The notes under the pieces were generated by a model. That model did not search any database and was not told where the DNA came from. It saw nothing but the letters and a program-made list of their open reading frames with translations. Positions 2,254 to 21,887 of a stretch of DNA of 64,000 nt are shown one piece after another. The stretch lies in NCBI GenBank assembly GCA_021833365.1, contig JAKBFV010000001.1:2750-66749 (forward strand), written 5' to 3'. The translations under genes and the position numbers were made by a program. Source of the DNA: Pseudomonadota bacterium. Lineage in GTDB: Bacteria > Pseudomonadota > Gammaproteobacteria > Pseudomonadales > Moraxellaceae. Positions within the stretch are counted from its first letter, which is position 1, and each line of letters opens with the position of its first letter.

Positions 2254-2270
2254 AATAGCATCGCGAAGTT

Positions 2271-3807: not shown

Positions 3808-3809
3808 AG

Positions 3810-5906: not shown

Positions 5907-5933
5907 TTTTAAGTCTCCTCGAAGATTTTCAGC

Positions 5934-6151: not shown

Positions 6152-6330
6152 GGCGGTATTGTCAGGTTAACTTTCCCTGGGAAAATGCGTTCCCACTTAG
6201 ATGGGGATTTAATGCATGAAACACGCAAAAATCCCCACCTAAGTGCTCTGGATGGCATTAAGCGAGCCCCCTTGGCCCCACTTCTGGTCGCGCACTTGCT
6301 GATAAATGCGTTAACGTGACAATACCCCCC
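6152..6330. mobile_element. MITE-like element (~180 bp) bounded by 18/20 terminal inverted repeats
   Basis: Left end GGCGGTATTGTCAGGTTAAC (6152-6171). The right end, reverse-complemented, reads GGGGGTATTGTCACGTTAAC (6329-6310, one more G at 6330). There is an internal 16/17 inverted repeat: CACTTAGATGGGGATTT (6194-6210) with AAATCCCCACCTAAGTG (6229-6245). No ORF. Flanked by two different truncated genes and no target-site duplication is visible. Confidence 0.4.
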
Positions 6331-6836: not shown

Positions 6837-8451
6837 GGCTCACCCCTCGCAGTGTGTCATAGCGGGCGACATTGGCTTGGGGCTCGACCTTCAGTTGCAA
6901 GGCCGGCGGTGTCGCCATGGGCGCGGGCGGCGTTTCTCCCAGCAGGCGGCTGAGGAGGTTGAGGATGTGCGTCTTCGAGGCGGCGCCGGCCTCCAGTGCC
7001 AGTTCGACCGCCGTCAACACGGCCTGCTCGTCATACTGCAGCACCAGCGAGAGTATCTCGACCATCTCGCGATCACCGCCAGGCCGTTTTAACAGGATAC
7101 CTTGCAGCCGGCGGAAGCCCTCGGGCATGGTCTTGAACGGCGCACCATTACGGAGTGCCCCTGGTTTACGCTGCACGGCGCCGAGGTAGTGGTGCCAATC
7201 GAAGACCGTACGGCCGCCATCGTGGGCCCGGTTGATGTGGCGGGCGTGCTCGGCGATGACATTGCCTTCAGCGACCATCACCACGCGGTCATGGTACAGG
7301 CGCGCGCTCACCGGCCGGTTGGCGAAGCTGGCCGGCACACTGTAGCGGTTACGGTCCACATGCACCAGGCAGGTGGGGGTGACCCGTTTGGTCTGCTCGA
7401 TGAATCCATCGAAGGGGCCGGCCATGGCGGTTAGCTCAGGGACTTCCTCCTGCATCATCTCGGCGATCGTGCGCTGTCGTTGCTCAGGGTGCGGCAGTTC
7501 CTGCCACAGCGTCTTGCAGCGCTGTTCCAACCAGTCGTTGAGCGCGGCCAGCGACGGCATTGGCGGTGCCTCGCTCCACAGGCGATGGCGGGCATCCTGG
7601 ACGTTCTTCTCGACCTGGCCCTTCTCCCACCCCGAGGCCACATTGCAGAAGTCGGGTTCATAGAGGAAATGGCTGACCATGGTGGCAAAGCGCTCGTTGA
7701 TGTCACGCTGCTTGCCACGCCTGACCTTGTCGACGGCGGTCTTCATGTTGTCGTAGATGCCCCGCTGTGGCACGCCGCCGAACACCGCGAAGGCATGGTT
7801 GTGGGCATCGAACAGCATCTCGTGGGTCTGCTGCCAGTAAGCCCGTACCAGGAATGCACGGCTGTAGCTGAGCTTGAAGTGCGCCACCTGAAGCTTTACC
7901 TTCTCCCCATTGATGCTGGCATGGTCCTCGCTCCAGTCGAACTGGAAGGCCTCGCCGGGTGCGAAGGTCAGCGGCACAAATGCCTTGCCGGCGCCTTGGG
8001 CCCGATCCATCTCGGCCTGCTTCCAAGCCCGGGCAAAGGCGGCCACGCGATCATAGCTGCCGGTGTAGCCCCTGGCCTGCAGGGCGGCATGGAGTTGCTT
8101 GATGGTCTTGCGGTACTTGCGGGTGGCGCGCTGGTTGGCGGCCAGCCAGTCAGCCATGTCGGCCACGAAGGGATCCAGGGCGCTGCTGCCGTTGCGCTTG
8201 GCATAGGCAGGATTGAGCGCGCCAGACTTGAGGTACTTGTCGATGGTGTTGCGGGAAAGGCCGGTGCGCCGGGAAATCTCCCGGACGGACAGCTTGTCAC
8301 GGAAATGCATCCTTCGGATGAAGGTCAGTTGAGCCATGTCGATCACTCCTGGTGCTCCGAGTCGGGTAACGACCCAGAGGGTTGGGGTGATGGCTCAAAA
8401 TTCGATGCAAATCCCTAGGAAAAGTGGCTCAGTATTGGGTGCAACTCAACA
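6326..8451 (-). mobile_element. IS21-family insertion sequence, left end intact, right end deleted
   Basis: Has the istA-istB organisation. The terminus reads TGTTGAGTTGCACCC... on the minus strand from about 8451. It is followed by two subterminal direct repeats (TGGCTCAGTATT 8424-8435 and TGGCTCAAAATT 8390-8401 on the plus strand), as is typical for IS21 ends. No matching right end was found, and istB is cut at about 6330. Confidence 0.75.
6826..8346 (-). CDS. istA: IS21-family transposase IstA
   Basis: 506 aa. N-terminal HTH (LSVREISRRTGLSRNTIDKYLKSG) and a DDE integrase core. It overlaps istB by 11 nt, as is usual for IS21 elements. Confidence 0.9.
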   Translation of the reverse strand: MIDMAQLTFIRRMHFRDKLSVREISRRTGLSRNTIDKYLKSGALNPAYAKRNGSSALDPFVADMADWLAANQRATRKYRKTIKQLHAALQARGYTGSYDRVAAFARAWKQAEMDRAQGAGKAFVPLTFAPGEAFQFDWSEDHASINGEKVKLQVAHFKLSYSRAFLVRAYWQQTHEMLFDAHNHAFAVFGGVPQRGIYDNMKTAVDKVRRGKQRDINERFATMVSHFLYEPDFCNVASGWEKGQVEKNVQDARHRLWSEAPPMPSLAALNDWLEQRCKTLWQELPHPEQRQRTIAEMMQEEVPELTAMAGPFDGFIEQTKRVTPTCLVHVDRNRYSVPASFANRPVSARLYHDRVVMVAEGNVIAEHARHINRAHDGGRTVFDWHHYLGAVQRKPGALRNGAPFKTMPEGFRRLQGILLKRPGGDREMVEILSLVLQYDEQAVLTAVELALEAGAASKTHILNLLSRLLGETPPAPMATPPALQLKVEPQANVARYDTLRGVSHVA

Positions 8452-8839
8452 CTGAATTACCAAGCCATGTAAAAAGTGTGGGCATCAAGCATAAGAAACC
8501 GTGTGATCACATAAATTTCATTCTATTCCGCTTGCTATGCAAATTGAAAGCCCTAAGGTGTCAATCCCAGGGCGGCCCTGAGTCTATCCCCCGGCGATTT
8601 GGCCGAATCGCACATCCGGCACTTGGCTTCTTGGTTAAACAGCGCGTTCATGGAGTCCCTACACCCTTACGGTCCACGACTCCTGAATGGCATTCCTCAT
8701 GGTTCAACTCGCCTCAAGCCACCCCTCCAAGAGGGTTGGTGTTGGCGCGCAGCTTTTTCGCCAAGCCAGGGGTGCCACGTCGCAGTTCTTCGCTCCTGCC
8801 CGACCAACCCCCGCACGATTGACGGCAGACGCCGACTTC

Positions 8840-8884
8840 TTGTTGGAGGATGAGCAATACTGTAGAATGCAGTACATTTGCAGT
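8840..8884 (+). promoter_or_regulatory. sigma70-like promoter with overlapping repeat operator upstream of the RHH gene
   Basis: -35 TTGTTG (8840-8845), 17-nt spacer, -10 TAGAAT (8863-8868). TGCAGT direct repeats lie at 8868-8873 and 8879-8884 (11-bp phasing). TACTGTA (8858-8864) forms an imperfect inverted repeat with the first TGCAGTA. AGGAGA RBS precedes ATG 8901. Confidence 0.4.
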
Positions 8885-8900
8885 GGAGTCAGGAGAGGCT

Positions 8901-9095
8901 ATGGCCAACAGCAAAACCGCCACGCTGACCTTTCGGATCGATCCGAGCTTGAAGGAGGCATTGCTCGTCGCAGCTCACGCGGAGCATCGCTCCATCGCGA
9001 ACATGATCGAGGTCTTGATTCGTGGCTACTGCGAGCAGCGAGGCATTGCCATCCCCGACTCCGAAACCGAGAACAAGAGTGGAGAGCGTTCATGA
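8901..9095 (+). CDS. ribbon-helix-helix (CopG/Arc-type) DNA-binding protein
   Basis: 64 aa from the ATG with a good RBS; the track ORF starts earlier at 8850. TATLTFRIDPSLKEALLVAAHAEHRSIANMIEVLIRGY fits the beta-strand/helix/helix RHH pattern. The stop overlaps the next ATG (ATGA at 9092-9095). Confidence 0.7.
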   Translation: MANSKTATLTFRIDPSLKEALLVAAHAEHRSIANMIEVLIRGYCEQRGIAIPDSETENKSGERS

Positions 9096-12000
9096 TCAAG
9101 ACGGTTAAGCAGGCCTGCCGGTTCAATCCGGTCATTCAAGACTACCGGATGAGTCAGGGCATCGAGAACCTGGCCGATCTGATTCATGACGCGGGTGACG
9201 GTCGAGAGTTCTTCTCGCGCAACTTCGTCACGCACGGCATGGAGCAACTCTTCCGCGAAGGCCTACTGCGCCTGTCCGGTAAGTCTGATCAGGCCGTCTT
9301 CGAACTGACCCAAGCAATGGGTGGCGGTAAGACGCACATGATGATCGCGCTTGGTCTGCTGGCGCGGCATCCTCATCTGCGTCCGGAAGTCCTTGCCACT
9401 GACTTGAGTGATCGCGTGGATTTCGGTCAGGCCCGCATCGCCGCTTTCAACGGTCGCAACAACCCCGACAACTACATCTGGGGCGAAATCGCGACGCAGC
9501 TAGGCGAAGCCGAGGCCATTAAGCCCTACTGGGTCAATGGCCCCAAAGCGGTCGACCAACGTCAGTGGAAAGAAATCATTGGGGACAAGCCCACGCTGAT
9601 CTTGCTCGACGAGTTGCCCCCCTACCTTGACAACGCCAGCACCCAGGTGTTTGGACAGGGCACGCTCGCCAACATGGTGGTTTACAGCCTCAGCAGCTTG
9701 ATGAGTGCCGCGCTTGAGTTGCCCAACTGCGCCATCGTCGTCGCCAACCTTTCCGGCAGCTACAAAGCGCAGACCAAGGCTCTCGGGGATGCCATTTCCA
9801 ATCTGCAGCAGGAAACCCGCCGCCAGGCAATGACGATCACGCCGGTGCAACTGGCCGGTAACGAGATCTACGAGATCCTCAAGAAGCGACTGATTGACGA
9901 ACTTCCCGACGAGCGCATCATCGCTGACATCGCCGACGAATACGCCCAGCAGATCAAGAAGGCCGAAGATGGGGGCTACATTGTCGCCGCCAGCCTGGAA
10001 CAGATTGCCGAGCAAGTTCGCGAGACCTATCCGTTCCATCCCTCATTCAAGCATCTGGTCGCCCTGTTCAAGGAGAACGAAGGCTTCCGCCAGACCCGTG
10101 GCTTGATGCAGTTCACCGCCCGGTTATTGAAGAGTGTTGCGGAACGGGAAGCAGACGACGTTTTCCTCATCGGCACCCAGCATTTGGCACTCAATGACGA
10201 TCAAGTCAAAGACGAGATCGAACGCATCGCGCCAAAGTTGATGCCAGCCCTCACCCGGGACATCGCCGACAACGGTAATGCCATCGCGGAAACCATCGAT
10301 GACGAACTGGACGGCGATGCCGCCCAGCAAGTGATGACGCTGCTGTTGGCATCGTCCTTGTCTCGCGCAGTCGGTGGGCGAATTGGCTTGTCCGACAGCG
10401 AGATCATCGAGTTCTTGGCCGCGCCCAATCGCAAGGCGGATGAATTTCTCCAGGCGCTGCAACGACTCCGTGAGCACGCGTGGTATCTCCACCGCGAGGA
10501 TCAGCGTTTCTTCATCAAGGAAACCGAAAACCTCTCGCGCCAAATCGAACGCAACGCCAAGGAAGTACCGCAGCCCAAGGTTGACCAGGCGCTCATTAAC
10601 CGACTGACTGGCATCCTGCAGCCCGAGCGGCGCAACGCCTATCAGGATGTGCAGGTACTGCCGAAGCTAGACGAGCTGAAGCTCACCGGGCCGCGAACTC
10701 TAATTGTCATCAAGCCAGACGGCAAGGTGCCCCCGAGCGAACTGCAGAACTTCTTCGACTACCAGCAGGAGAAGAACAACCTGCTTGTGCTCACAGGCCA
10801 GGACAGTCATATGGCTGATGCGGTCGAGGATCGCCTGCGGGAGCTCTATGCCATTGAGCAGATTCACAAACGGCTGAAGGCTGGCGACACGCTTTTTGAG
10901 GAAGCACGCGACCGAATGGAAGAAGCCGAAGATCGCTTCGAGAAAGCCCTGTCGGCAGCATACAACCGCGTCTACTTCCCCAGTGTTGATGATCTGGATG
11001 GGCGCGAGTTTCTCGCGCCAGTCACCATCGACAACGGGTTGAAGCTGGGCAAAGGAGATCAATCCGCTGAGGCTCAGATCGAATCCCTGCTCGCCAGCCC
11101 GCGCGCCAACTACAAACTCGCAGCCGATCTCGCCGAGAACTTTAATGAATACTTTGCGATGGCTGAGGAATACCTCTGGCCATCAGGTAAGGACAACCGG
11201 CGCACCCCGTGGAAGGACGTCGTCAGCCGTGCCAAGAGCAATCCCGTTTGGCCCTGGATGCCCGGTAGCGGCGGTATGGACACCCTCAAGACGGAGGCAC
11301 TGAAGCAGGGTCGCTGGCGATTGGGTGAGGATGGGTATGTCGAAAAGGGACCCTTCCCAAAAGACAAGACCACTGTCAACGTCTCCGTGGTCGGTAGCCA
11401 TCCCGACACCGGCGAGACCATCTTGAGTCTCACCCCTCGGCACGCAGGCGAAAGCCCAATGGTCGTTTATGCAACCCGGCCAGAGGAACTGGTTACCGGG
11501 AAAGCGGTGGACGATCTGGATAGCTTCACGACCGGAGAAGGCACGCTCTACTTCCTGGCTAAAGATCAGACCGGTCAGTACGAAACTGGTGCGCCTGTTC
11601 GGTGGACTGCCGATCTCAAGATTCGCCACCAGGTTGATCCAGCCGCTGACAAGCGGCGCATCACCCTGGCGAGCACGCCCAAGGCAGATCTGTTCTACAC
11701 GCTGGATGGTTCCAATCCCAAGGACGGCACGCCCTACGAGGGTCCGTTCGAGATCGGGCCGCAAGCGGTACGCCTCTTGGTTTATGCACGCGCTGGTGAA
11801 GCCAACAAGACAGCGGACTTTCAGGTTCCTGCAAGTGGCGACAAGACGGTTCAGATCGTTGATACCAAGCCAGCCAAGCTGCAATCCAAGCGAGTCGCGC
11901 TCGACACCACTGACCGTGTCTATGGCGTCATCAACCGCTTCCGCGATCAGCCGGGCACTCGCTTTAAGGGTGTCCGCATTGAGATTGGCGAGGGTGAAAA

Positions 12001-12214
12001 CACTGTGACCATTCGCTTTCAAGAGCGAGAGGTAACCGCAGCAATGATTGAGGGTGTGGTGAACAGCCTTCGTCAGGTGTTGAACGAAGACCAAGCGCCG
12101 GTCGCCATCACCATTGCCGATGGCATCCAGTTCGACACAGGATTTGCTGCCAAAGAGTTCGCCAAGCTGGTGGGCATTGAGCTCAAGCCCGGCGACGTAA
12201 TTCAGGAGAACTAG
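9092..12214 (+). CDS. DUF499 / BrxC-PglY-like AAA ATPase
   Basis: 1040 aa from ATG 9092. The track ORF from 8687 is an upstream read-through with junk sequence. Walker A QAMGGGKTH, Walker B KPTLILLDELPPYL. Large helical middle and C-terminal beta-rich domains. Size and motif layout match the DUF499 family (COG1483). Confidence 0.85.
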   Translation: MIKTVKQACRFNPVIQDYRMSQGIENLADLIHDAGDGREFFSRNFVTHGMEQLFREGLLRLSGKSDQAVFELTQAMGGGKTHMMIALGLLARHPHLRPEVLATDLSDRVDFGQARIAAFNGRNNPDNYIWGEIATQLGEAEAIKPYWVNGPKAVDQRQWKEIIGDKPTLILLDELPPYLDNASTQVFGQGTLANMVVYSLSSLMSAALELPNCAIVVANLSGSYKAQTKALGDAISNLQQETRRQAMTITPVQLAGNEIYEILKKRLIDELPDERIIADIADEYAQQIKKAEDGGYIVAASLEQIAEQVRETYPFHPSFKHLVALFKENEGFRQTRGLMQFTARLLKSVAEREADDVFLIGTQHLALNDDQVKDEIERIAPKLMPALTRDIADNGNAIAETIDDELDGDAAQQVMTLLLASSLSRAVGGRIGLSDSEIIEFLAAPNRKADEFLQALQRLREHAWYLHREDQRFFIKETENLSRQIERNAKEVPQPKVDQALINRLTGILQPERRNAYQDVQVLPKLDELKLTGPRTLIVIKPDGKVPPSELQNFFDYQQEKNNLLVLTGQDSHMADAVEDRLRELYAIEQIHKRLKAGDTLFEEARDRMEEAEDRFEKALSAAYNRVYFPSVDDLDGREFLAPVTIDNGLKLGKGDQSAEAQIESLLASPRANYKLAADLAENFNEYFAMAEEYLWPSGKDNRRTPWKDVVSRAKSNPVWPWMPGSGGMDTLKTEALKQGRWRLGEDGYVEKGPFPKDKTTVNVSVVGSHPDTGETILSLTPRHAGESPMVVYATRPEELVTGKAVDDLDSFTTGEGTLYFLAKDQTGQYETGAPVRWTADLKIRHQVDPAADKRRITLASTPKADLFYTLDGSNPKDGTPYEGPFEIGPQAVRLLVYARAGEANKTADFQVPASGDKTVQIVDTKPAKLQSKRVALDTTDRVYGVINRFRDQPGTRFKGVRIEIGEGENTVTIRFQEREVTAAMIEGVVNSLRQVLNEDQAPVAITIADGIQFDTGFAAKEFAKLVGIELKPGDVIQEN

Positions 12215-12216
12215 AG

Positions 12217-12849
12217 ATGGCTCAATCCAAGGCGGCAAGCAGCGCGGCAAAAGGCAAAGCGGTCGGACAGAAAAATCTGCACCCTACGCTTGGCTTTGGC
12301 GTGCCTGCCACCTCGGACCCGCATCACTTCAAGGTCATCATTCCTCGGAGCAACACCGGGCGCGTGCAGATAAGTGAGTACCTCGGCATGCAAGCCACCG
12401 CCGATGAGCACGCGGTTATCGACCGCGTATTGCTGGATCGACCACGCTGGACGGCCATCCGCTCAGAAGTTCAGCGCGCATTCAATGCCCGGCTCAATGG
12501 GCACGGGCTCAAGCCTAGCGCCTGGAAAGTCGGCGACAACCCAGTGGACAGACTGTTGGGCAAGGAGCTCTGTGTCCTCGCGTGGGCCGTGGAACACATG
12601 GAGATTGAGAAAGTGCCGGTCGCCGTGAGGAATTGGCTGGCGCTGCGCCCCGAAGAGCGCTGGTGGCTCTTTGGCATGACGGCCATGAGCACAGGCGGCA
12701 TCAACGACAGTGACAAAGGTTGGCGGTTGGCGTTGCGCCACGCGCTTGGCGACGTCGCACAAAGCGAACTGCTGCAACCCAAGGCGCGGCATCAACGCGC
12801 GGGCGACGACAGCGACCGCCCGACCTTGGACCTATTTGGGAACGAATGA
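12217..12849 (+). CDS. small conserved partner protein (DUF3780 position)
   Basis: 210 aa, starting 2 nt after the DUF499 stop and ending 3 nt before the methyltransferase start. Basic N-terminus and Trp-rich core (WLALRPEERWWLFGM). Its size and its location between the DUF499 and DUF1156 genes match what I recall for DUF3780. Not verifiable here. Confidence 0.55.
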   Translation: MAQSKAASSAAKGKAVGQKNLHPTLGFGVPATSDPHHFKVIIPRSNTGRVQISEYLGMQATADEHAVIDRVLLDRPRWTAIRSEVQRAFNARLNGHGLKPSAWKVGDNPVDRLLGKELCVLAWAVEHMEIEKVPVAVRNWLALRPEERWWLFGMTAMSTGGINDSDKGWRLALRHALGDVAQSELLQPKARHQRAGDDSDRPTLDLFGNE

Positions 12850-12852
12850 AAA

Positions 12853-15816
12853 ATGAATGAAGCGGTAAGAACAACTACTCCCCTAGTTCCGCTGGCGCTC
12901 AAGGACGCACCGGCCCTGATTGAATCGGTGTTCCCTGCGCAAAAAGTCTCGTTCGAGGCGCAAGCCGAACGTAAAGCGGTTGCTGCCCAGACGCTGACTG
13001 GGTTGGGTTCCTATTGGAAAGGGCGTAAACCTCTGATCCTGGTGCGCGCCATCGTGCTTGGCAGCCTGCTGCCCGCGACTGACGACCCTGAACAAGACCT
13101 CGCGGTGTTCGAGAAGTTGATGGCCTTCGATGAGGAAAGCCTCGCAAGGCGTGCGCTAGCTGAAAACGCGCTGTCCGCGACGCGCTTGCAGGAACTGATC
13201 CCCATCAGCGACCCCGAGCGCTATTTTTCCGGACGGGGCTGGCGGCGCGACATCACCGACGATGACAAGCTGGTGCTCTATCGCAGAGCATTGGTGACCT
13301 TTGGTAGCTACGAGGAAAAGGCCGGTCTGGGCAAACGCCCCGAAGAAGTCGATCAGGAATGGCTTTACGCTCCGGCGTGGGAGGCCGTTAACCAGCATTA
13401 CGCGCATTTAGGCATCAACGCCAACAACATTGCCGAACTGGTTGAACAACTGGGCATGCTGCGCTACGGCCATCGGCCGAGGGCCGGTGATACCTTCAGT
13501 GGCGGTGGTTCGATTCCCTTTGAAGCAGCACGCATTGGCTGCGACGCCTATGCCTCCGATTTGAACCCGATTGCGTGCATGCTGACCTGGGGCGCACTCA
13601 ATGTCATCGGAGCCTCCCCCGAGCGCCGGGCAGAGATTGATCGGGATCAACAGGCTGTGTTTGATGTGATCGACAAGGAGATCACCAAACTAGGCGTCGA
13701 ACATGACGAGAAAGGCAACCGTGCCAAGGCGTACCTTTATTGTCTGGAGACGCGTTGTCCTGAAACCGGGTGGGTGATTCCGCTCTCGCCGAGTTGGGTG
13801 ATCTCGCCCAAACAAGGCGCGGTTGCGAAGCTCATCCCTGACGAGAAGAACAAGCGTTTCGACATCGAAGTCGTCACGGGAGCATCTGCAGCACAGATCG
13901 CGGCTGCCGATAAGGGCACCGTACAAGACGGGGACATGGTCTACACCCTCAACGGTCGCACCTATCGCTCACCGATCAAGACGCTGCGCGGTGATTTCCG
14001 TGATGCGGATGGCAATACCGGCAATCGCCTGCGTCGTTGGGAGAAAGATGAGTTTCATCCACGACCCGATGACATCTTTCAGGAGCGCCTCTACGCCATC
14101 CAGTGGATCACCAAGAAGTCCATCAATGCGTCGCGGCAGATCACCTATTTCTCCACGGTGACCGAGGCCGACCTCGCACGCGAGCAGAAAGTTGAAAAGC
14201 TGGTCGCCAACAATCTAGCCCAATGGCAGGCAGAGGGGCTCGCACCGGATATGGCCATCGAGCCAGGGGACAAGACCGACGAGCCAATTCGCACGCGCGG
14301 CTGGACGCATTGGCACCATCTGTTCAATGCGCGACAAATCCTCATACAAGCGATCACCCTGAAAGCCTGGAAGAGTTCTCCATCGGCTCCACTTGGCCGG
14401 TTAAACGTTGCCAAGGCAGCAGACTTTAATGCCAAGCTAAGTCGGTGGAAGCCCAGCCAAGGTGGCGGGTTGGGAGGCCCTGTCGGCGTCTTCTCTAACC
14501 AAGCCCTCAACACTTTCTATAACTACGCAACGCGCGCGTGGGCTGGCTTCGGGGCCTCCTCGTTCAAGATGGCGGATGCCCCACTGCCTGCCGTGGAGCG
14601 CTCCATCGTGTCTGCGCCTGCGGAGCGACCGACGCAGAGTTGTGAGCTCTGGATCACCGATCCGCCTTATGCCGACGCGGTGAACTACCACGAGATCACT
14701 GAGTTTTTCATCGCCTGGCTGCGCAAGAACCCACCCAAGCCATTTGACGAGTGGGTGTGGGATTCACGCCGCGCACTTGCCATCAAGGGTTCGGGTGAGG
14801 ACTTCCGGCGCGGAATGGTCGCCGCCTACAAGGCGATGGCGGATCACATGCCCGACAACGGCATGCAGTGCGTGATGTTCACCCACCAGGACACGGGTGT
14901 TTGGTCGGACATGGTCGGCATCTTCTGGGCTGCTGGCTTGCAGGTCGTGGCAGCCTGGTACATCGCCACCGAGACGACGTCCGAGTTGAAGAAAGGTGGC
15001 TACGTACAGGGCACCGTGATTCTGATGCTGAAGAAGCGTGCTGCAGGTGATCGTGCAGGCTTCAAGCAACGCATCCTTCCTGCCGTGCGCAGCGAAGTGC
15101 AGCGTCAGATTGAAACGATGATGCACCTCAACGACGAGGTGAAGAGCAAACACGGCGAGCCCGTTTTCAACGACTCCGACTTGCAGATGGCAGGTTACGC
15201 CGCCGCGCTTAAGGTGCTGACGGCCTATACGCAAATTGGTGGCGAGGACGTGACTGCTTTCGCACTGCGCCCACGCGTGCGCGGTGAGGTCACAGTGGTC
15301 GATGAAATCGTCCAACAGGCGGCAGAAGCGGCCAACAGTCTACTGGTGCCCGAGGGTCTGGCAGCCGACACCTGGGCCAAGCTGACGGGTATCGAGCGCT
15401 TCATGCTGCGCATGATGGACATGGAAACTACGGGCGCGGCCAAGCTCGACAACTATCAGAGCTTTGCCAAGGCCTTCCGGGTTGAGGACTACAGCCGAGT
15501 GATGGGCAGTATGGCGGCCAATCAAGCTCGACTGAAGCGCGTGCCCGAGTTTGCCTCCCGCGACTTGACCGACAGCACCGAGCTCGGTGCCACTCGACTC
15601 GGGCGCTTGATCATTGGCGTGCAACAGGTGTTGGCGGAAACCGAACCGCAGGCCATCGTCAGCCAATTGCAGGCCGAAATGGCCGACTTCCTCGAGGTCC
15701 GCTCACTGCTGGTGGATTTGTTGGCCTTTATTGAACGCAAAGCCCCGGAAGAGCAAGTCCGCGCCGGTGCTGAAGTTCTTGGCGCACGCCTGAAGAACCT
15801 GCGGTTTGGGGCCTAA
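12853..15816 (+). CDS. DUF1156-family DNA methyltransferase (DPPY, probably N6-adenine)
   Basis: 987 aa. N-terminal DUF1156-like region (FPAQKVSFEAQAERKA...YWKGRKPLILVRA). SAM motif I FSGGGSIPFEAARIGCDAYASDLNP. Catalytic motif IV LWITDPPYADAVNY. Confidence 0.85.
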   Translation: MNEAVRTTTPLVPLALKDAPALIESVFPAQKVSFEAQAERKAVAAQTLTGLGSYWKGRKPLILVRAIVLGSLLPATDDPEQDLAVFEKLMAFDEESLARRALAENALSATRLQELIPISDPERYFSGRGWRRDITDDDKLVLYRRALVTFGSYEEKAGLGKRPEEVDQEWLYAPAWEAVNQHYAHLGINANNIAELVEQLGMLRYGHRPRAGDTFSGGGSIPFEAARIGCDAYASDLNPIACMLTWGALNVIGASPERRAEIDRDQQAVFDVIDKEITKLGVEHDEKGNRAKAYLYCLETRCPETGWVIPLSPSWVISPKQGAVAKLIPDEKNKRFDIEVVTGASAAQIAAADKGTVQDGDMVYTLNGRTYRSPIKTLRGDFRDADGNTGNRLRRWEKDEFHPRPDDIFQERLYAIQWITKKSINASRQITYFSTVTEADLAREQKVEKLVANNLAQWQAEGLAPDMAIEPGDKTDEPIRTRGWTHWHHLFNARQILIQAITLKAWKSSPSAPLGRLNVAKAADFNAKLSRWKPSQGGGLGGPVGVFSNQALNTFYNYATRAWAGFGASSFKMADAPLPAVERSIVSAPAERPTQSCELWITDPPYADAVNYHEITEFFIAWLRKNPPKPFDEWVWDSRRALAIKGSGEDFRRGMVAAYKAMADHMPDNGMQCVMFTHQDTGVWSDMVGIFWAAGLQVVAAWYIATETTSELKKGGYVQGTVILMLKKRAAGDRAGFKQRILPAVRSEVQRQIETMMHLNDEVKSKHGEPVFNDSDLQMAGYAAALKVLTAYTQIGGEDVTAFALRPRVRGEVTVVDEIVQQAAEAANSLLVPEGLAADTWAKLTGIERFMLRMMDMETTGAAKLDNYQSFAKAFRVEDYSRVMGSMAANQARLKRVPEFASRDLTDSTELGATRLGRLIIGVQQVLAETEPQAIVSQLQAEMADFLEVRSLLVDLLAFIERKAPEEQVRAGAEVLGARLKNLRFGA

Positions 15817-15820
15817 GTGA

Positions 15821-18559
15821 ATGTCGATCCGGCGCTTCTCCTCCCGGACCCATCGGCTCGACGCGAGCTTCCTGTTGCAGCATCTGCAGGGGGCTCGCAG
15901 CTATAAGCGTATCGCTGGCTACTTCACAAGCTCGCTGTTTGAGGTCGCCAACGAACTGCTGGAGACCATTCCTGAGGTCAAGATTGTCTGCAACGTGGAC
16001 ATCCACCCCGACGATCTGAAGGTGGCGCAGCTACGCGAAGCCAAGATGATGGGGCGTTGGAACGAGAAGGCTATCGAAGCAGAGGCCTTGCTCAATCGAG
16101 ATCGCTACCGTCGCTTAGACACCTTCTTGCAGAAGCATGGTCAGGCCGTGCGCGTGGCTCCAGACAACATCTGCGGTTTCGTGCATGGCAAGGCGGGAGT
16201 CATCGAGCTGGCTGACGGCCGCAAGTTGGGCTTCATCGGCTCGATGAATGAGACCCGCAGCGGCTGGCAGCGGCACTACGAGATATTGTGGGAAGACGAG
16301 TCCCCCGAAGGGGTCGCCTGGATTGAGGAAGAGTTCGAGTTTTTGTGGAATGCGGCTCGACCGCTTCCGCAGGTGGTCATCCGGGAGGTCCATCGGCGTG
16401 GCTACCGCCGCGAGGTGTTCTTCGACGAGATCGACGAAGATGAGAATCTCGCACCAGCGGCCTTAATCGAATCGCCTCTTTACCGCGAGGGATTGTCTCT
16501 ACAGCCTTGGCAGCAGGGGTTTATCACCGAGTGCCTGCGCCACCACCAACAGCACAAAGTAGTGAGGCTGCTGCTGGCCGATGAGGTGGGGCTCGGAAAG
16601 ACGCTGTCCCTCGGTACCGCAGCGCTGACACTTTGTTTGCTGGCGGATCGAGAAAACCAGGCGCGCAAGCCAGTGGTGATCTTTGCTCCGGCCACCCTGT
16701 GCGAACAATGGCAGACAGAGATGATCGATAAGCTGGCGATCCCCTGTGCGCGCTGGGATACCTTGCGAAAGGTTTGGCTGGACACCGACGAGCGCGTCAT
16801 CTCACCTGCTGGTCGCGAACAGATTGCCAAGTGCCCCTTGCGGATTGGCATCGTCTCCACAGGCTTGATGATGCGCGACTCGCTGGAAAAACAGCACCTC
16901 CTGGGCTTGCGATTCGGTTTGGTCATCCTTGATGAAGCCCATAAGGCGCGCAGTCGCCAAGGTTTCGGAAAGGATGCAGGTTCCCCGAATGAGCTACTCG
17001 CGTTCATGCGTGAGATTGCCGCTCGCTCAGATCACGTTCTTCTGGGTACAGCTACGCCGATTCAGACCCAGCCCGAGGATTTATGGGACTTGATGGGCAT
17101 TCTCCACCAAGGCAAAGGCAACTTCGTTCTTGGCAACGACTTTGCGCTGTGGCATCGACCTCGAGAGGTCCTGCCAATCCTTTCCGGCGAGCAAGAGGTC
17201 ACAGATACCTCATTTGCCTGGCAGCTGCTGCGGTCCCCTTTACCCCTGGTTGACTCCACCCAAGAGCCGCGCGCAAGAAAGCTGTTCAGCGCCATTCGAC
17301 AGGACTTAGGGCTCGTTAATGGGGAATGGCAAACCACCAAGACAGCTACAGATTTGACGGAGGATACCCGGGAGATCCTGGAAGATGAGTTGGCGCGCCG
17401 AATTTCGGGTGCAACCTTATTCCAGCGAGAGAATCCATTGGTGCGTCACATAGTGCTGCGCAAACGCGTAAGTCTTGAAGATGCTGGACTGTTGACCAAG
17501 GTCGGTGTCGACGTTCATCCAGATCGCCAGCTTGTCGGCGACCCACGTTGGTTCGATGCGCTATTTGAGGCCAAGGCACTGCGAACCAATGAGAATTTCC
17601 GTGAAGCCTATCGAGAGGCGCGCCTGTTTGGTAAGGCGCTCGGCAAGCGCGGCAAAGGCGGCGGATTCATGAAAAACCTGATGGAGCAACGCATTTGCTC
17701 CAGCATTCAGGCAGGGCTAAGTACCGCCAGGATGCTACTCGAAGGCCGAACGATCCACCAAGAGGAAGATGAGCAGGAGGCTGATCTGAAGGTTGAAAGC
17801 GGCGAAGAACGCGAGGTCCTGCTCCGCCTAATCAGTCGGCTAGAGCACATTCAGGAAGACCCAAAACTTAACGCCGTTATCCACTACCTGGAAAGAGAAA
17901 AGTGGCGAGAGCTCGGGGTCATTATCTTCAGCCAGTACTACGACACGGCCAAGTGGGTCGCCGACGAGTTGGCCGCGCGGTACCCGGATGAGGCAATTGG
18001 CCTGTACGCTGGCGCAGGGCGCAGTCGCTTGTATCAACGTGGCGATAGCGTGACGTGCGAGCGGGAAACGCTCAAAAAAATGGTGGCAGAACATGAGATC
18101 CGCATCATGGTGGCAACCGATGCGGCGTGCGAGGGACTGAACCTGCAAACGCTCGGCACCTTAATTAATATCGATTTGCCGTGGAATCCGACGCGTCTCG
18201 AACAGAGGATCGGACGCATCAAACGCTTCGGTCAAAAACGTGAAACCGTGGATATGCTCAATCTGGTGAATGAGCAAACCGTGGACGAGAAGATCTACGA
18301 GCGTCTGTCAGAGCGGATGCGAAATCGCTACGACTTATTTGGATCAGTGCCCGATACGATCAAGGACGAATGGATCGAGGACATCGAAACCCTCGGGGAA
18401 AAAATGGACGAGTTCATTAATGCCCAAAAAGAAGCCACCGGATTTGACTTGCGCTATACAGGCACGATGGAGCCACCCGAGAAAGACTGGCGGGATTGCT
18501 CAGCAGTGCTGTCACGTCGGGACTTCTCGGTGTTGATGACCACGGCTTGGACGGGATAA
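15821..18559 (+). CDS. PLD-like nuclease domain fused to SNF2-family helicase
   Basis: 912 aa. A single HKD-type motif sits at the N-terminus (VHGKAGVIELADGRKLGFIGSMNET). SNF2 motifs: LLLADEVGLGKT (I), VILDEAH (II), LLGTATPIQ (III), ATDAACEGLNLQ (V), WNPTRLEQRIGRIKRFGQ (VI). Confidence 0.85.
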   Translation: MSIRRFSSRTHRLDASFLLQHLQGARSYKRIAGYFTSSLFEVANELLETIPEVKIVCNVDIHPDDLKVAQLREAKMMGRWNEKAIEAEALLNRDRYRRLDTFLQKHGQAVRVAPDNICGFVHGKAGVIELADGRKLGFIGSMNETRSGWQRHYEILWEDESPEGVAWIEEEFEFLWNAARPLPQVVIREVHRRGYRREVFFDEIDEDENLAPAALIESPLYREGLSLQPWQQGFITECLRHHQQHKVVRLLLADEVGLGKTLSLGTAALTLCLLADRENQARKPVVIFAPATLCEQWQTEMIDKLAIPCARWDTLRKVWLDTDERVISPAGREQIAKCPLRIGIVSTGLMMRDSLEKQHLLGLRFGLVILDEAHKARSRQGFGKDAGSPNELLAFMREIAARSDHVLLGTATPIQTQPEDLWDLMGILHQGKGNFVLGNDFALWHRPREVLPILSGEQEVTDTSFAWQLLRSPLPLVDSTQEPRARKLFSAIRQDLGLVNGEWQTTKTATDLTEDTREILEDELARRISGATLFQRENPLVRHIVLRKRVSLEDAGLLTKVGVDVHPDRQLVGDPRWFDALFEAKALRTNENFREAYREARLFGKALGKRGKGGGFMKNLMEQRICSSIQAGLSTARMLLEGRTIHQEEDEQEADLKVESGEEREVLLRLISRLEHIQEDPKLNAVIHYLEREKWRELGVIIFSQYYDTAKWVADELAARYPDEAIGLYAGAGRSRLYQRGDSVTCERETLKKMVAEHEIRIMVATDAACEGLNLQTLGTLINIDLPWNPTRLEQRIGRIKRFGQKRETVDMLNLVNEQTVDEKIYERLSERMRNRYDLFGSVPDTIKDEWIEDIETLGEKMDEFINAQKEATGFDLRYTGTMEPPEKDWRDCSAVLSRRDFSVLMTTAWTG

Positions 18560-18561
18560 CG

Positions 18562-19863
18562 ATGTTGGACGAGTACTCGATAGAACAACGCGCGACGCAG
18601 ATCTTCGATGCGCGCACCAAGGAATACTTTTCCGAGGTATTGAGCTGCTACGCGGCAGGCAACTACCGGTCGGCTGTCGTGATGCTGTGGTCGGTGGTGG
18701 TTTGTGACCTTCTGTTTAAGCTCCAGCATCTCGTTGATCTCTACGGTGACGACAAGGCAAAGGCTATTCTGGCCGAGATAAGCAAACTGCAGGAGGCCAA
18801 CGAACGGTCTTCGGAATGGGAATCGAAGCTGGTGGAGTCTGTGGCGGAACAGACGCAGTTACTGGACATCGCCGAGCGAGAGAACTTGCTGCATCTGCAA
18901 CGCCAGCGGCACCTTGCGGCTCACCCGGTAGTCAACGCCAATTTCCAGTTGCATCGCCCGAACCGTGACACAGCCCGTGCCCTGATTCGCAACGCGCTCG
19001 ATGGGCTGCTCACGAAAGCGCCGATCTTATCCAAGCAGATCGTGGGTGATCTGGTCGAGGATCTTGAGCAGGCATCGGGAATCCTGATCGACGACAAGAA
19101 GCTGAAGGCGTACTTGGAAAGCAAGTATTTCTCGCGCTTCAATCCGGAGGTCGAGAAGGCCGTCTTCAAAGCCTTGTGGAAGTTTGTGTTCCGGTTGACC
19201 GACGAACGGTGCGAGAAGAACCGCACCATCAACTACAGCGCATTGACTCTGCTGTATGGCCGCAACCCGACGCAGTTCCAAACGCAAATCGAAGCCGACA
19301 GGGATTACTTCAGCACTATAGCCACGGGTGGCGCGCCCCTTGTGTGCCTGATTCACTTTCTATCGCGCTCGCCACGAATCTACGGGTTACTGGCGGATCA
19401 CGCCAAGACCGCGATCCTGCACACTGCAGAACAGGAAGCTTCCGCTCACTGCTTGGCGTGGTTCACTTCCAGTTCGCTCGAAGAACACGCCGCGCGGCTT
19501 GGTGATTGGATAGCGAGCGCGGACTATCCTCAAATTGATCAGGGAACATGGGACTCTTTACGGGAACTCTCTGATTCGCCGGAGTGGGCCAAAGCGGTGA
19601 TTCGATTGGCGAACAAGTATTACGTTGCTAGCGGGAGCTATAACGCCGCCGATCAGCGGTTTGCGGAGGTGATCCGGCCCGCTCTTGGGCGGTATGTCAT
19701 TGACGATTGCATCGATCTCATCGAGGGAATTCAGAGCAACAGCCAGACATGGGAGCGGGGGCGCGCACGTGGAGATCATCGACTGCTGCGTGCCCGAGCA
19801 ATGGAGCTCGACCCGTCGTTCGATCCAACACAGTACGCAGTTTTCAACCGACACCTCGACTAA
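18562..19863 (+). CDS. hypothetical protein with HEPN-like Rx4H motif
   Basis: 433 aa from ATG 18562, 2 nt after the helicase stop; the track ORF begins at 18496 inside the helicase gene. All-helical N-terminus (YFSEVLSCYAAGNYRSAVVMLWSVVVCDLLFKL) is followed by LHLQRQRHLAAHPV (R-x4-H). The remaining ~280 aa are unassigned. Confidence 0.55.
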   Translation: MLDEYSIEQRATQIFDARTKEYFSEVLSCYAAGNYRSAVVMLWSVVVCDLLFKLQHLVDLYGDDKAKAILAEISKLQEANERSSEWESKLVESVAEQTQLLDIAERENLLHLQRQRHLAAHPVVNANFQLHRPNRDTARALIRNALDGLLTKAPILSKQIVGDLVEDLEQASGILIDDKKLKAYLESKYFSRFNPEVEKAVFKALWKFVFRLTDERCEKNRTINYSALTLLYGRNPTQFQTQIEADRDYFSTIATGGAPLVCLIHFLSRSPRIYGLLADHAKTAILHTAEQEASAHCLAWFTSSSLEEHAARLGDWIASADYPQIDQGTWDSLRELSDSPEWAKAVIRLANKYYVASGSYNAADQRFAEVIRPALGRYVIDDCIDLIEGIQSNSQTWERGRARGDHRLLRARAMELDPSFDPTQYAVFNRHLD

Positions 19864-19911
19864 TGTTGCTGCCAGAGTCGAATGTGAAGTTTCGGCACCA
19901 TTGATTTCTAA

Positions 19912-20445
19912 TCACGGTTTTGTCGAAAGGGTTTTCCCCTCTGCCGGCATCCGCAGAAGCCATTGTTGCAACGCTCTCAGTTGCTCGGCGTTTTCGTGGC
20001 AGGTCTGGTAGTTGGCGACAACGGTTCCGGCGACGGCAGAGAGCGCAATGCCTTCGGCGGCCGCATCAGCATCTCTGGCGGGCTCGGGCAGCTCACCGGT
20101 GGCGGCAGCGTCGTGCAGGCGCACAAAGCCCCGGTTGATAGTGCAAGCAGCATCGGCTTGAACGGGCACATAGACGGGAATTTCCTTGATGATGGTGTCG
20201 CCCTTCTCGCGGACGACGCGGACGCGGTCGACGTACTGGGTGACGACCTCGACGGTGGCTTGCGCCTGCCGCTCGCGGGCGGCGGCGATCTGTAGGGCTT
20301 GTTGATGGATGGCGGCATCCCATCGCGCTTGAACGTGGCTCGCCCCCTTGATCCAGCCGAAGCCAACCAGGGCGACGCAGAGCGCCGTGAGTGCCAGCAG
20401 CCGGTACGGCCACGGAATCACGCTCACGACGCCTCCCCGATGCAC
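19912..20445 (-). CDS. phage i-spanin (Rz-like)
   Basis: 177 aa with a GTG start (uncertain). N-terminal TM (LLALTALCVALVGFGWI) and a coiled-coil periplasmic part. Lies directly downstream of the endolysin and overlaps it. Contains an embedded proline-rich lipoprotein ORF in another frame. Confidence 0.6.
   Translation of the reverse strand: MHRGGVVSVIPWPYRLLALTALCVALVGFGWIKGASHVQARWDAAIHQQALQIAAARERQAQATVEVVTQYVDRVRVVREKGDTIIKEIPVYVPVQADAACTINRGFVRLHDAAATGELPEPARDADAAAEGIALSAVAGTVVANYQTCHENAEQLRALQQWLLRMPAEGKTLSTKP
19977..20153 (-). CDS. phage o-spanin (Rz1-like) embedded in the Rz frame
   Basis: Part of track ORF 19977-20366. From M72 it reads MLLALSTGALCACTTLPPPVSCPSPPEMLMRPP..., a signal-like segment with a Cys lipobox candidate (LCAC) followed by a Pro-rich tail. 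It lies entirely inside the Rz gene, as in lambda Rz/Rz1. An alternative start is at 20171. Confidence 0.45.
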   Translation of the reverse strand: MLLALSTGALCACTTLPPPVSCPSPPEMLMRPPKALRSLPSPEPLSPTTRPATKTPSN

Positions 20446-20933
20446 TGCCGGTATTCAGCTTCTCGCCGTGTAGCGAGCCCACCGCACAGCCGCACGTTGG
20501 TGGGCAGCGCGCAGTCTTTGCCCTGGAAGAAGCGCCAGCGCAGCAGCTCGGCACAGGCCCCTGCGTAGTCCTGAACGTTGAGTTTTCTGACCAGCGTGGA
20601 CTGGCAGAACGCGCGGCTGCCGACGTTGTAAGAAAAGCTCACCAGCGCGTCGTACTCGTGCTGGGCCAGGGGCACGGTCACGCATTGCTTGAGCGCCCCC
20701 TCGAATTGCTGCACGTCGGTAAGTGCCCGAGCCAGCGCCTTTGGCGGCGTGGTGGTGTCGCCCAGCTTCACCCCGGTGGTGGTGCCGAAACCAATGGTCG
20801 GTACATCGCCCTTGACGGGGATCACTGCACGGTCGGTGTAGCCCTCGTGCAGCACGATGCCAACCAGGGCGGCAGCGGACAGCGTCAGTCCGGCCACCGT
20901 CCTGCGCATCGCTGGTGATGGTGGCCGGGTCAT
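20424..20933 (-). CDS. phage lysozyme (GH24), SAR-endolysin type
   Basis: 169 aa. N-terminal weakly hydrophobic Ala/Gly-rich helix (VAGLTLSAAALVGIVL). Catalytic region HEGYTDRAVIPVKGDVPTIGFGTT (E-D-T triad pattern of T4/P21-type lysozymes). YDALVSFSYNVG also present. ATGA overlap with the holin stop. Confidence 0.85.
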   Translation of the reverse strand: MTRPPSPAMRRTVAGLTLSAAALVGIVLHEGYTDRAVIPVKGDVPTIGFGTTTGVKLGDTTTPPKALARALTDVQQFEGALKQCVTVPLAQHEYDALVSFSYNVGSRAFCQSTLVRKLNVQDYAGACAELLRWRFFQGKDCALPTNVRLCGGLATRREAEYRQCIGEAS

Positions 20934-21157
20934 CGGTGCATCTCCGGCTGAGCCACGATGCGAGCTACGGTTGCGCCGATGCTGGCGGCAAAGGCCAGCA
21001 GCACGAACGCGCCGCGCGGTAGTACGTCCCCGAACAGCGGCACCACGACTTCCGCCGCCGTGAAGGCAGCGGCCAGCAGCGAGAAGCGGATGCTCCAGGC
21101 CCGTCGCAACACGCGCCGCCAGTCGTCCAGAAGGCAGATCTTCGGCTTGGCAGTCAT
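20930..21157 (-). CDS. putative holin / pinholin (2 TM)
   Basis: Only the last 75 codons of track ORF 20930-21646 look coding: MTAKPKICLLDDWRRVLRRAWSIRFSLLAAAFTAAEVVVPLFGDVLPRGAFVLLAFAASIGATVARIV.... Two hydrophobic helices. Lies immediately upstream of the SAR endolysin. Confidence 0.55.
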   Translation of the reverse strand: MTAKPKICLLDDWRRVLRRAWSIRFSLLAAAFTAAEVVVPLFGDVLPRGAFVLLAFAASIGATVARIVAQPEMHR

Positions 21158-21459
21158 TGCACGCCTCCCATCAGCTTCAACTTGATGGCAGCCCCCACCA
21201 GCAGCGCGGCCAGGATGCCGGTGGTCACGACCTTGACGGTGGTCTGCCACGCCGTTCGGCGGGCATCGCGCCACGCTTCCAGCAGATCGCGCAGTTCGCG
21301 GATGTCCTTCGCGGCACTGCCGTTCTCCAGCCCGAGATGGGCAAGGCAACGCTCGGCTCCGCGTTCGGCGGCACGGTCGAGCAGTTCGTCGAAGTCCTCG
21401 CGGCGCAAGAGAAGCATGTTCTCGACGTGCGCAGGCTGTTGTTGTTCGGGTTCGGTCAT
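21154..21459 (-). CDS. small tail-anchored phage protein (lysis-associated, unknown role)
   Basis: Last 101 codons of track ORF 21154-22044, from ATG 21459 with a GGAGAC RBS. Acidic helical N-terminus and a C-terminal TM (VVTTGILAALLVGAAIKL). ATGA-type overlap with the holin start. Confidence 0.5.
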   Translation of the reverse strand: MTEPEQQQPAHVENMLLLRREDFDELLDRAAERGAERCLAHLGLENGSAAKDIRELRDLLEAWRDARRTAWQTTVKVVTTGILAALLVGAAIKLKLMGGVQ

Positions 21460-21536
21460 TGCGGTCTCCAGAAATGCGAAACCCGCCCAGTGCGTGAACA
21501 TCTGGGCGGGTTTCGGGTGGGTACGATGATGGGAAA

Positions 21537-21887
21537 TCAGATGGCGATGCCAGCGCTCCAGCCGGTGGACTTGTAGGCCGAGAGCTTGGCCTCGTCCTCG
21601 ATGTAGCAAAGCCAGCCGATCTTGGGTGCGTGGTACTCCCAGGCATCGCCGATGCGTACGGCGATCTGGTTGGTTTTGCCTGCCCACACGCCCGTGGCGG
21701 CGGCAGGAATGAGGTAGCGGTCGCCGTTGGCGGGGCTGGCCGGTGGCGTGGTCAGGTCGCGGTCTTTCACGGACAGGCCGACCACAGCGCCGAGGCGCTT
21801 GAGGTTGGCGTCCATGCCGGTGTCCCAGCCGCTCTCGCCGAGCGTCCAGCCGTAGTTGAGTCCAAGGTTCGGATCGGTTGATGACAT
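21537..21887 (-). CDS. DUF2793-like phage tail/fibre-associated protein
   Basis: 116 aa. PASPANGDRYLIPAAATGVWAGKTNQIAVRIGDAWEYHAPKIGWLCYIEDE matches my memory of the DUF2793 signature found in phage/GTA structural modules. Confidence 0.55.
   Translation of the reverse strand: MSSTDPNLGLNYGWTLGESGWDTGMDANLKRLGAVVGLSVKDRDLTTPPASPANGDRYLIPAAATGVWAGKTNQIAVRIGDAWEYHAPKIGWLCYIEDEAKLSAYKSTGWSAGIAI

Follow-up and report, generated by a model that had tools for sequence, protein, structure and literature searches.

MANTIS and DARNA, two described anti-phage systems, very probably in tandem on a prophage remnant of a Moraxellaceae bacterium

The window analysed here is a stretch of 64,000 nucleotides (nt) from a bacterium of the family Moraxellaceae (GenBank assembly GCA_021833365.1, contig JAKBFV010000001.1), in which six genes follow each other in the same direction on the + strand between positions 8901 and 19863, as established from the list of open reading frames (ORFs) and by direct reading of the sequence. 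Region 8840–19863 very probably holds MANTIS and DARNA, both of them anti-phage systems known from earlier work, arranged in tandem on a prophage remnant. More specifically, genes 1–5 have, as judged from their sequence, the make-up of a standard MANTIS operon, mtsR–mtsA–mtsB–mtsC–mtsD, and gene 6 is assigned by its family and structure matches to DARNA/PD-T7-3, an HEPN tRNA anticodon nuclease that has been characterised separately. The locus is an ordinary instance of known systems and represents no new kind of defence; what it adds is modest, namely the start of mtsR at 8901, the conserved element at 8840–8884, the variable slot after mtsD, the helicase-then-DARNA gene order and the prophage cargo site. 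The six-gene string is tightly packed and probably co-transcribed: as stated in the original prediction, which was made from the DNA letters, the junctions are tight, with an ATGA overlap at 9092–9095 (gene 1/mtsA) and gaps of 2 nt (12214/12217), 3 nt (12849/12853), 4 nt (15816/15821) and 2 nt (18559/18562). The GC content is 55–59% in the operon versus 62–66% in the flanking core genes.

MANTIS is also known as Gao_RL, Gao_29 or the Type-2 DUF499-centred BREX-related (BR) system (10.64898/2026.09.23.753747; PMC12839542). According to its citation in the MANTIS preprint (10.64898/2026.09.23.753747), Gao et al. (2020) found that the four-gene core restricts a subset of DNA phages. A classification published in Nucleic Acids Research (NAR) in January 2026 recorded the Type-2 BR system in 1120 taxa, with DUF3780 as its specific marker and an HKD-helicase as its usual effector (PMC12839542), and the preprint, dated September 2026, renamed the system MANTIS and worked out its mechanism in Pseudomonas aeruginosa AZPAE15024 (10.64898/2026.09.23.753747). 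In that work, ATP-bound MtsA loads MtsC on an asymmetric 6-bp site, ATP hydrolysis by MtsA recycles the complex, MtsB, which methylation requires, stimulates the modification of one adenine, restriction acts on phages and plasmids and depends on MtsA–D, and pairs of inverted sites lead to strong restriction whereas direct repeats lead to weak restriction. MtsR, an Arc/CopG-type repressor, is present in only 'some MANTIS operons', including the authors' own, and knocking out mtsR increased restriction more than 10-fold for one phage (10.64898/2026.09.23.753747).

The window locus qualifies as a member of the MANTIS/BR Type-2 family on every feature that a sequence can test. It combines a DUF499 ATPase carrying Walker A and B motifs, a standalone DUF3780 gene between mtsA and mtsC, which is the Type-2-specific trait, a DUF1156 DPPY methyltransferase with an internal target-recognition domain (TRD), an HKD/phospholipase D (PLD)–SF2 helicase and the optional Arc/CopG-type MtsR upstream. 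All four core proteins exceed the cut-offs of curated NCBIfam equivalog models with end-to-end alignments and are matched at full length by dedicated PADLOC models. MtsA reaches 1546 bits against NF042962 (cut-off 1200, model positions 1–1025 of 1025) and 1485 bits against PADLOC DUF499, with the Pfam domains DUF499 and Fn3_assoc; MtsB reaches 287 bits against NF042961 (cut-off 200) and an E-value of 5e-81 against PF12635 (DUF3780); MtsC reaches 1379 bits against NF042963 (cut-off 1000), with the Pfam domain DUF1156; and MtsD reaches 1225 bits over its full length against NF042964 (cut-off 1100), with the Pfam domains PLDc_2, SNF2-rel_dom and Helicase_C. The equivalogs are named 'anti-phage-associated DUF499 / DUF3780 / DUF1156' and 'phospholipase D-like domain-containing anti-phage protein', and clusters at 90% identity join the window proteins with proteins from P. 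aeruginosa, Burkholderia, Neisseria and other Proteobacteria that bear such anti-phage-associated names. Support from hidden Markov models (HMMs) for the DUF499, DUF1156 and PLD–SNF2 assignments proposed earlier is thus far beyond chance, and the 'small protein' that the original prediction had seen and left unnamed is DUF3780. Searches of the PDB by sequence returned nothing for MtsA, MtsB and MtsC and only generic SNF2 proteins for MtsD; in the PDB copy searched, no MANTIS structure came up by sequence.

The catalytic motifs reported earlier are all in place. MtsA contains GGGKTH at residues 77–82 (Walker A, K80) and LILLDE at residues 169–174 (Walker B, E174), and MtsC contains FSGGG (215–219) and DPPY (603–606). 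MtsD displays a single PLD motif, H122-G-K124 in the context HGKAGVIE...GSMN, where a glutamate instead of an aspartate closes the HxK(x)4 stretch, followed by the helicase motifs GLGKT (257–261, with K260), DEAH (371–374), TAT (410–412) and QRIGRIKR (795–802). Note that the mtsA frame is open upstream as far as an ATG at 8687 (8687–9091), so that the mechanical list shows an ORF of 1175 residues; we take 9092 as the true start because the HMMs align from residue 2–3 and because gene callers give 1040 residues on identical contigs.

Compared to AZPAE15024, the five genes of the window have the same order and domain content, and the residues mutated in the MANTIS work (MtsA K80 and E174, MtsD H122 and K260; 10.64898/2026.09.23.753747) are found at identical residue numbers. 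The DPPY motif of MtsC is at 603–606 in the window versus 621–624 in AZPAE15024, an 18-residue offset consistent with length variation upstream of the motif, and the N-terminus of MtsB differs, M12 being absent from the window protein. The TRD swapped by the authors of the MANTIS work (MtsC residues 444–527; 10.64898/2026.09.23.753747) overlaps the variable target-recognition region of the window MtsC, which spans approximately residues 441–600 (nt 14173–14652). Between the window MtsC and relatives at least 95% identical to it (95–96% overall), divergence is confined to this region: identity per 40-residue bin is 67–90% within residues 441–600 and at least 92% elsewhere. Since its TRD differs from those of otherwise 95–96% identical relatives, the window MtsC probably has its own 6-bp specificity, and its recognition sequence probably differs from the AZPAE15024 site. 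Over 987 aligned residues, the protein shows no difference from its Nitrospira defluvii counterpart (locus L038; L numbers designate the homologous loci that we compared). The locus is useful as a variant of MANTIS that has a TRD of its own, and a methylome could reveal the corresponding specificity.

A second point of comparison is the operon of Escherichia coli UMNK88 (NC_017641.1, 3553024–3564308), which has the same gene order (CopG–DUF499–DUF3780–DUF1156–PLD helicase) under RefSeq 'anti-phage-associated' names and is approximately 66–70% identical to that of the window (66% for MtsC). Its MtsB differs in being a 366-residue protein with an extra C-terminal DUF4357 (L060, 4517–5617), compared to 210 residues in the window. 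More distant MANTIS loci (L046, L047 and L050) have approximately 1.7 kb of extra DNA between the MtsB and MtsC matches. Because of this extra segment and of the DUF4357 fusion in E. coli, the MtsB region appears as a second variable point of the operon. The sixth gene of the E. coli locus, which overlaps the end of mtsD, encodes an Mrr-type restriction endonuclease and not DARNA.

Table 1. Features of the six-gene locus and of its surroundings (window coordinates)
Feature	Position	Strand	Evidence
mtsR, 64-residue ribbon-helix-helix (Arc/CopG-type) putative repressor	8901–9095	+	weak Pfam RHH match, E. coli homologue
mtsA, DUF499 AAA+ ATPase, BrxC-like, C-terminal Fn3-like domains, 1040 residues	9092–12214	+	NF042962, PADLOC DUF499, Pfam
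mtsB, standalone DUF3780 protein, 210 residues, predicted co-activator of methylation	12217–12849	+	PF12635, NF042961
mtsC, DUF1156 N6-adenine DNA methyltransferase, 987 residues	12853–15816	+	NF042963, PADLOC DUF1156_MTase
mtsD, N-terminal PLD/HKD nuclease fused to SF2/SNF2 helicase-like ATPase, 912 residues	15821–18559	+	NF042964, PADLOC PLD_Helicase
DARNA/PD-T7-3 homologue, 433 residues from ATG	18562–19863	+	PADLOC PD-T7-3, PDB 9wxf
Promoter-like element, -35 TTGTTG (8840–8845), 17-nt spacer, -10 TAGAAT (8863–8868)	8840–8868	+	sequence reading, layout conservation
Conserved non-coding element TACTGTAGAATGCAGTACATTTGCAGT, candidate MtsR operator	8858–8884	+	five-locus alignment
Prophage lysis/tail remnant: 171-residue protein, phage lysozyme, DUF7940, DUF6127, DUF2793	19912–21887 (module to 22275)	-	Pfam, gene calls on identical contigs
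tRNA-Phe, right edge of foreign region; mutY and feoB beyond	24154–24229	-	ARAGORN, Pfam, GC profile
IS21-family element, istA (506 residues) and istB (192 residues), about 500 nt upstream of operon promoter	6258–8346	-	Pfam rve, Mu-transpos_C_2, IstB_IS21

The locus resembles several other defence families, membership of which was considered in turn. Its DUF499 ATPase is BrxC-like, the core of its methyltransferase is PglXI-like and its SNF2 helicase resembles BrxHII/DrmD, all of which recalls BREX (especially type 3) and DISARM. The hemimethylation of asymmetric 6-bp sites by MANTIS is also BREX-like, but MANTIS differs in having a PLD-helicase as effector and in preferring inverted sites for restriction. 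BREX membership is rejected since PglZ and BrxA/B/L are absent: apart from helicase and methyltransferase cross-matches, no PglZ or Brx model matched the six proteins, and none matched the neighbouring ORFs that were scanned. As for DISARM, neither DrmA nor DrmB (DUF1998) is present, the DrmA match to the locus being a helicase-domain cross-match only (PADLOC), and the DrmD model NF038317 gives 195 bits versus a cut-off of 610. The earlier statement that the locus is neither BREX nor DISARM, PglZ, BrxA/B/L, DrmA/B and DUF1998 being absent, was thus correct. MADS (mad1–mad8), which the MANTIS paper treats as a separate system (10.64898/2026.09.23.753747), was likewise set aside, no mad model being among the PADLOC matches listed for the six proteins (for MtsD, the best 25 of 55 families). 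Hma, or BR Type-1, is likewise built from three parts, combining a DUF499 ATPase with a DUF1156 methyltransferase and an SF2 helicase-nuclease, but lacks the DUF3780 gene and has a helicase that carries an REase/DUF3883 module (PMC12839542). The window locus, which has the DUF3780 gene and a helicase with an N-terminal HKD rather than REase module, does not belong there either; distant partial HMM matches to Hma proteins were obtained (HmaC 5e-47, HmaB 4e-19, HmaA 6e-38), and the Type-2 models score far higher.

A gene content that is not that of BREX, DISARM or MADS, and from which Pfam alone retrieves only domains of unknown function (DUFs), is what one would expect if the locus were a methylation-associated defence system that is new, belongs to none of the described families and is devoid of a mechanistic description, as put forward in the original prediction. 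We regard this possibility as extremely unlikely, given that curated equivalog models exist and are passed, that Gao_RL was validated in 2020 and then classified (January) and dissected (September) in 2026, its ribbon-helix-helix gene included (PMC12839542; 10.64898/2026.09.23.753747), and that gene 6 is PD-T7-3/DARNA (10.64898/2026.02.22.705581). A published functional description, which the prediction itself had named as what would overturn it, exists for five of the six genes because MANTIS has been published, and gene 6 was published separately; the six genes are therefore not one system outside described families, genes 1–5 corresponding to MANTIS and gene 6 to DARNA. As a discovery, the locus matters little, the system being curated in NCBIfam and PADLOC and its sixth gene being published as well.

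The start of gene 1 is most likely the ATG at 8901, which yields a 64-residue protein. This choice follows from a good ribosome-binding site (AGGAGAGG) and the invariance of this ATG across loci, from the 64 residues given by gene callers on identical contigs, and from the alignment of the E. coli CopG-family homologue from M1 of the 64-residue form. That homologue, a ribbon-helix-helix protein which precedes the E. coli MANTIS operon, is 66% identical to MtsR from M1. The ATG at 8850 was discarded as a start: it is missing from the Stutzerimonas and Propionivibrio copies, and it lies between the -35 and -10 hexamers of the promoter-like element. A matching layout, TTGTTG-17-TAATAT, is found upstream of the E. 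coli UMNK88 homologue, where it is followed by the core GCAGTACATTTGCAG, which the E. coli operon keeps despite only about 70% DNA identity in the coding region. In the window, the promoter-like element is followed by the block TACTGTAGnnTGCAGTACATTTGCAGT, which is invariant in related loci with otherwise unrelated upstream flanks (alignment of five loci), and exact matches to the pattern of the conserved element occur in L001–L004, L009, L035 and L037. In the element TACTGTAGAATGCAGTACATTTGCAGT itself, TGCAGT direct repeats are spaced by 11 nt, and the -10 hexamer is framed by a TACTG/CAGTA inverted repeat. Altogether, TTGTTG-17-TAGAAT and the conserved block (8840–8884) may be taken as a putative promoter and a candidate MtsR operator.

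Gene 6 matches the PADLOC PD-T7-3 model (PDLC04108) with an E-value of 1e-168 over positions 2–429 of 432, and PDB entry 9wxf ('Dandelion', 12 chains) with an E-value of 1.8e-77, residues 5–425 aligning with residues 11–441; it has no Pfam or NCBIfam match. Collinearity with PD-T7-3 is full length and includes the C-terminal helical domain. The HEPN Rx4H motif, R116-HLAA-H121, aligns with R117/H122 of DARNA (PDB numbering +5) and is invariant in 13 members of the clade, so that the HEPN-like call made earlier for gene 6 is borne out. PD-T7-3 was recovered in an E. coli functional selection as a system of its own that protects against T-even phages and T7 (Vassallo et al. 2022), and was renamed DARNA in a February 2026 preprint (10.64898/2026.02.22.705581); our literature search retrieved no relevant paper using 'Dandelion' as the name of a defence system. 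E. coli DARNA forms a dodecamer; the protein has an HEPN RNase (R117x4H122) at its N-terminus and, at its C-terminus, a helical domain that senses single-stranded DNA (ssDNA). It is activated by CT-motif ssDNA presented by SSB, the phage protein that binds ssDNA, and cleaves tRNA anticodon loops, resulting in abortive infection (10.64898/2026.02.22.705581). Compared to the window protein (433 residues), E. coli DARNA is longer (456 residues) and their similarity is well below that observed within the clade. Moreover, E. coli DARNA was studied as a single-gene system, whereas the window copy is the last gene of a MANTIS operon; the main text of the MANTIS paper contains no occurrence of PD-T7-3 or of an HEPN gene.

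By orthology, the window locus would function as follows. The MtsR repressor would damp expression. MtsA, an AAA+ ATPase of the ORC/Cdc6 clade, would load MtsC onto a short asymmetric site, where MtsB would stimulate the methylation of adenine at N6 on one strand; as MtsA hydrolyses ATP, turnover would become possible, so that the host DNA would carry hemimethylation as its mark of self. When incoming DNA is unmethylated, the site-bound MtsABC complex would recruit the dimeric PLD-helicase MtsD, which would use ATP and cut best when sites are inverted. DARNA would add a layer of abortive infection, switched on by ssDNA bound to phage SSB. The mechanism initially proposed already included a DPPY methyltransferase that marks self DNA and a PLD nuclease/translocase as effector; it also gave the ATPase a 'sensing' role, whereas the main role of the ATPase would be to load the methyltransferase onto its site. 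The locus would thus offer a natural example of layered defence, in which a restriction-modification-like DNA-targeting system is followed by an abortive-infection tRNase, both carried as prophage cargo.

What the accessory slot directly after mtsD contains varies between loci. The slot is occupied by DARNA in the window (18557–18564), in Stutzerimonas (L009), in Propionivibrio (L035) and in a viral contig (L044), by a DARNA stump (residues 1–55) in Neisseria flavescens and N. defluvii (L037 and L038), by a GmrSD type IV enzyme in an IMG/VR contig (L046, 12730–12752), and by the Mrr-type endonuclease, with a 4-nt mtsD overlap, in E. coli UMNK88 (L060, 11568–11571). Only one of the seven MANTIS loci in IMG/VR contigs carries DARNA. 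When the window is aligned with the other loci that carry DARNA, for most of them the homologous DNA sets in precisely at 18561, a single nucleotide ahead of the start codon. The original prediction had taken the ribbon-helix-helix and HEPN genes for add-ons, which agrees with the variability of this slot and with the presence of MtsR in some MANTIS operons only. A consensus scan of 18400–20100 identified neither a promoter nor, after gene 6, a + strand terminator; having no detectable promoter of its own and starting 2 nt after the mtsD stop, DARNA is therefore probably expressed by read-through. We therefore read DARNA as a second-layer module in its own right, which is probably transcribed together with the genes that happen to lie upstream.

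The close junction and the missing promoter could also be expected if the six genes formed one integrated system, in which DARNA served MANTIS specifically as its back-up effector; the HEPN tRNase might, for instance, be activated by ssDNA or processed DNA that arises as MtsD translocates along phage DNA or cuts it, or as a phage inhibits MANTIS. In the genome sample, an SNF2 helicase gene lies directly upstream of DARNA in 29 of 34 informative loci, four of them MANTIS loci and 25 containing another conserved cassette, so that the arrangement recurs with two unrelated methyltransferase–helicase cassettes. The pairing persists in loci devoid of a phage module, at least five of which have full downstream flanks (L009, L010, L023, L025 and L029), and this also weakens the idea that DARNA owes its position solely to the phage lysis module located 3' of it. 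In addition, the DARNA stumps found after mtsD in Neisseria and Nitrospira suggest that the linkage is ancestral in this MANTIS lineage, and HEPN and other 'auxiliary/backup effectors' beside BR loci are proposed in the NAR classification (PMC12839542). However, E. coli DARNA works alone, its trigger being phage SSB-bound ssDNA (10.64898/2026.02.22.705581), MANTIS is functional without DARNA in both P. aeruginosa and E. coli (10.64898/2026.09.23.753747), DARNA is rare on viral-contig MANTIS loci, where as elsewhere unrelated enzymes such as GmrSD and Mrr fill the slot, and the genome sample was recovered via DARNA N-terminal peptides and covers one DARNA clade only. An integrated six-gene system is therefore unlikely in our view. 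It seems equally doubtful that, more broadly, this DARNA clade acts as a co-transcribed back-up effector repeatedly attached 3' of SNF2-helicase/methyltransferase cassettes (MANTIS and the second cassette). If it did, DARNA would read the ssDNA made when the upstream helicase-nuclease engages phage DNA, or fails to clear it, and restriction would be coupled to abortive infection.

Some observations weigh against the reading of the locus as MANTIS followed by an independent DARNA module, or at least against parts of it. Methylation, restriction and tRNA cleavage are attributed to the window copy by homology; in the MANTIS paper, the nuclease activity of MtsD was not measured directly in vitro and the role of MtsB is unclear (10.64898/2026.09.23.753747). 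The matches of MtsR to Pfam RHH_1/RHH_5 have E-values of about 2e-3, under the gathering score. A sigma70 consensus scan of 8350–9100 gave no promoter match at threshold, so that the promoter call is drawn from conservation: the sigma70-like promoter announced in the original prediction falls below the scan threshold, and its TTGTTG-17-TAGAAT layout is conserved in E. coli. The residues with which DARNA reads the ssDNA 'CT' motif are only partly conserved (from E. coli to the window, F368 to Y360, N402 to S394, Q403 to Q395, Y405 to W397, W406 to E398 and N408 to G400): the glutamine and the aromatic residues are kept, W406 and N408 are lost, and a tryptophan is present one position earlier. 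The trigger specificity of the window DARNA may therefore differ. Finally, helicase and DARNA genes adjoin each other more regularly than chance co-location alone would predict, so that some functional coupling is conceivable.

The second methyltransferase–helicase cassette precedes DARNA in about 25 genome loci (L010, Stenotrophomonas, 37–10001; L011–L034, L039–L043 and L053–L059). It encodes, in this order, a 517-residue protein and a 330-residue protein, both without a family match, the product of a variable slot (a 309-residue ORF in L010, SIR2–HerA in P. aeruginosa L058/L059), a 1070-residue N6-methyltransferase (HmaB/PglXI-like, E-value 1e-36), a 165-residue protein, and a 925-residue SNF2 helicase (BrxHI/HmaA/DrmD-like, under every NCBIfam cut-off). 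The helicase is 85–96% identical across metagenome-assembled genomes of Proteobacteria, Verrucomicrobia, Chloroflexi and Planctomycetota. The cassette contains no PLD, DUF499 or PglZ, and no curated system was matched at cut-off. This cassette may represent a defence system that has not yet been described, or else a module with which an integrative and conjugative element or phage establishes itself. The window locus thus points to a regular helicase-then-DARNA arrangement and to a second cassette without a curated match at cut-off, either of which could merit a dedicated look.

The MANTIS–DARNA string is the cargo of a degraded prophage inserted beside a tRNA-Phe gene. Downstream of gene 6 lies a remnant of a lysis/tail module, from which a few small ORFs separate the tRNA-Phe gene. 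This module adjoins MANTIS or the second cassette in each of the 13 IMG/VR loci that were recovered, and it also occurs beside the cargo in several genomes (loci with the module: L002, L011–L013, L021, L038 and L044–L057). Since alternative defence cassettes adjoin the same module in 13 of 13 IMG/VR loci, the site appears to be a cargo hotspot of the prophage family. No second copy of the tRNA-Phe 3' end was found within the window; the left end of the island must therefore lie outside the window or have been lost.

Decay of the prophage raises the question of whether the locus is itself a relic, either silenced or endowed with an inactive component. The surrounding prophage is truncated compared to the near-identical metagenome contig L002, where a full tail module follows (Phage-tail_3, Phage_BR0599), an IS21 element lies upstream of the promoter, and gene 6 has decayed in relatives (to stumps in L037 and L038, while L030 and L034 have partial copies). 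Yet the six ORFs are intact and align with the models end-to-end, no catalytic motif is missing, the insertion sequence lies outside the promoter/operator element and has left it intact, and identical copies exist in several independent assemblies, which makes an inactive relic very unlikely.

The istB product of the IS21 element covers positions 3–163 of 238 in the IstB profile and looks truncated at its C-terminus; identical metagenome contigs break at about 8312, inside the element, as expected for a repeated sequence. Further upstream, GC content is low (39–47% over positions 1–4000), and defence-related remnants are found on the - strand between 998 and 4769: a LeoC-like protein (998–1561; PADLOC LeoC, E-value 8e-65), two ORFs (1687–2253 and 2271–2867) that are apparently the halves of a DUF445 protein, and a WYL/WCX regulator (3810–4769). 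An LprI/zinc-ribbon gene is also present upstream of the operon.

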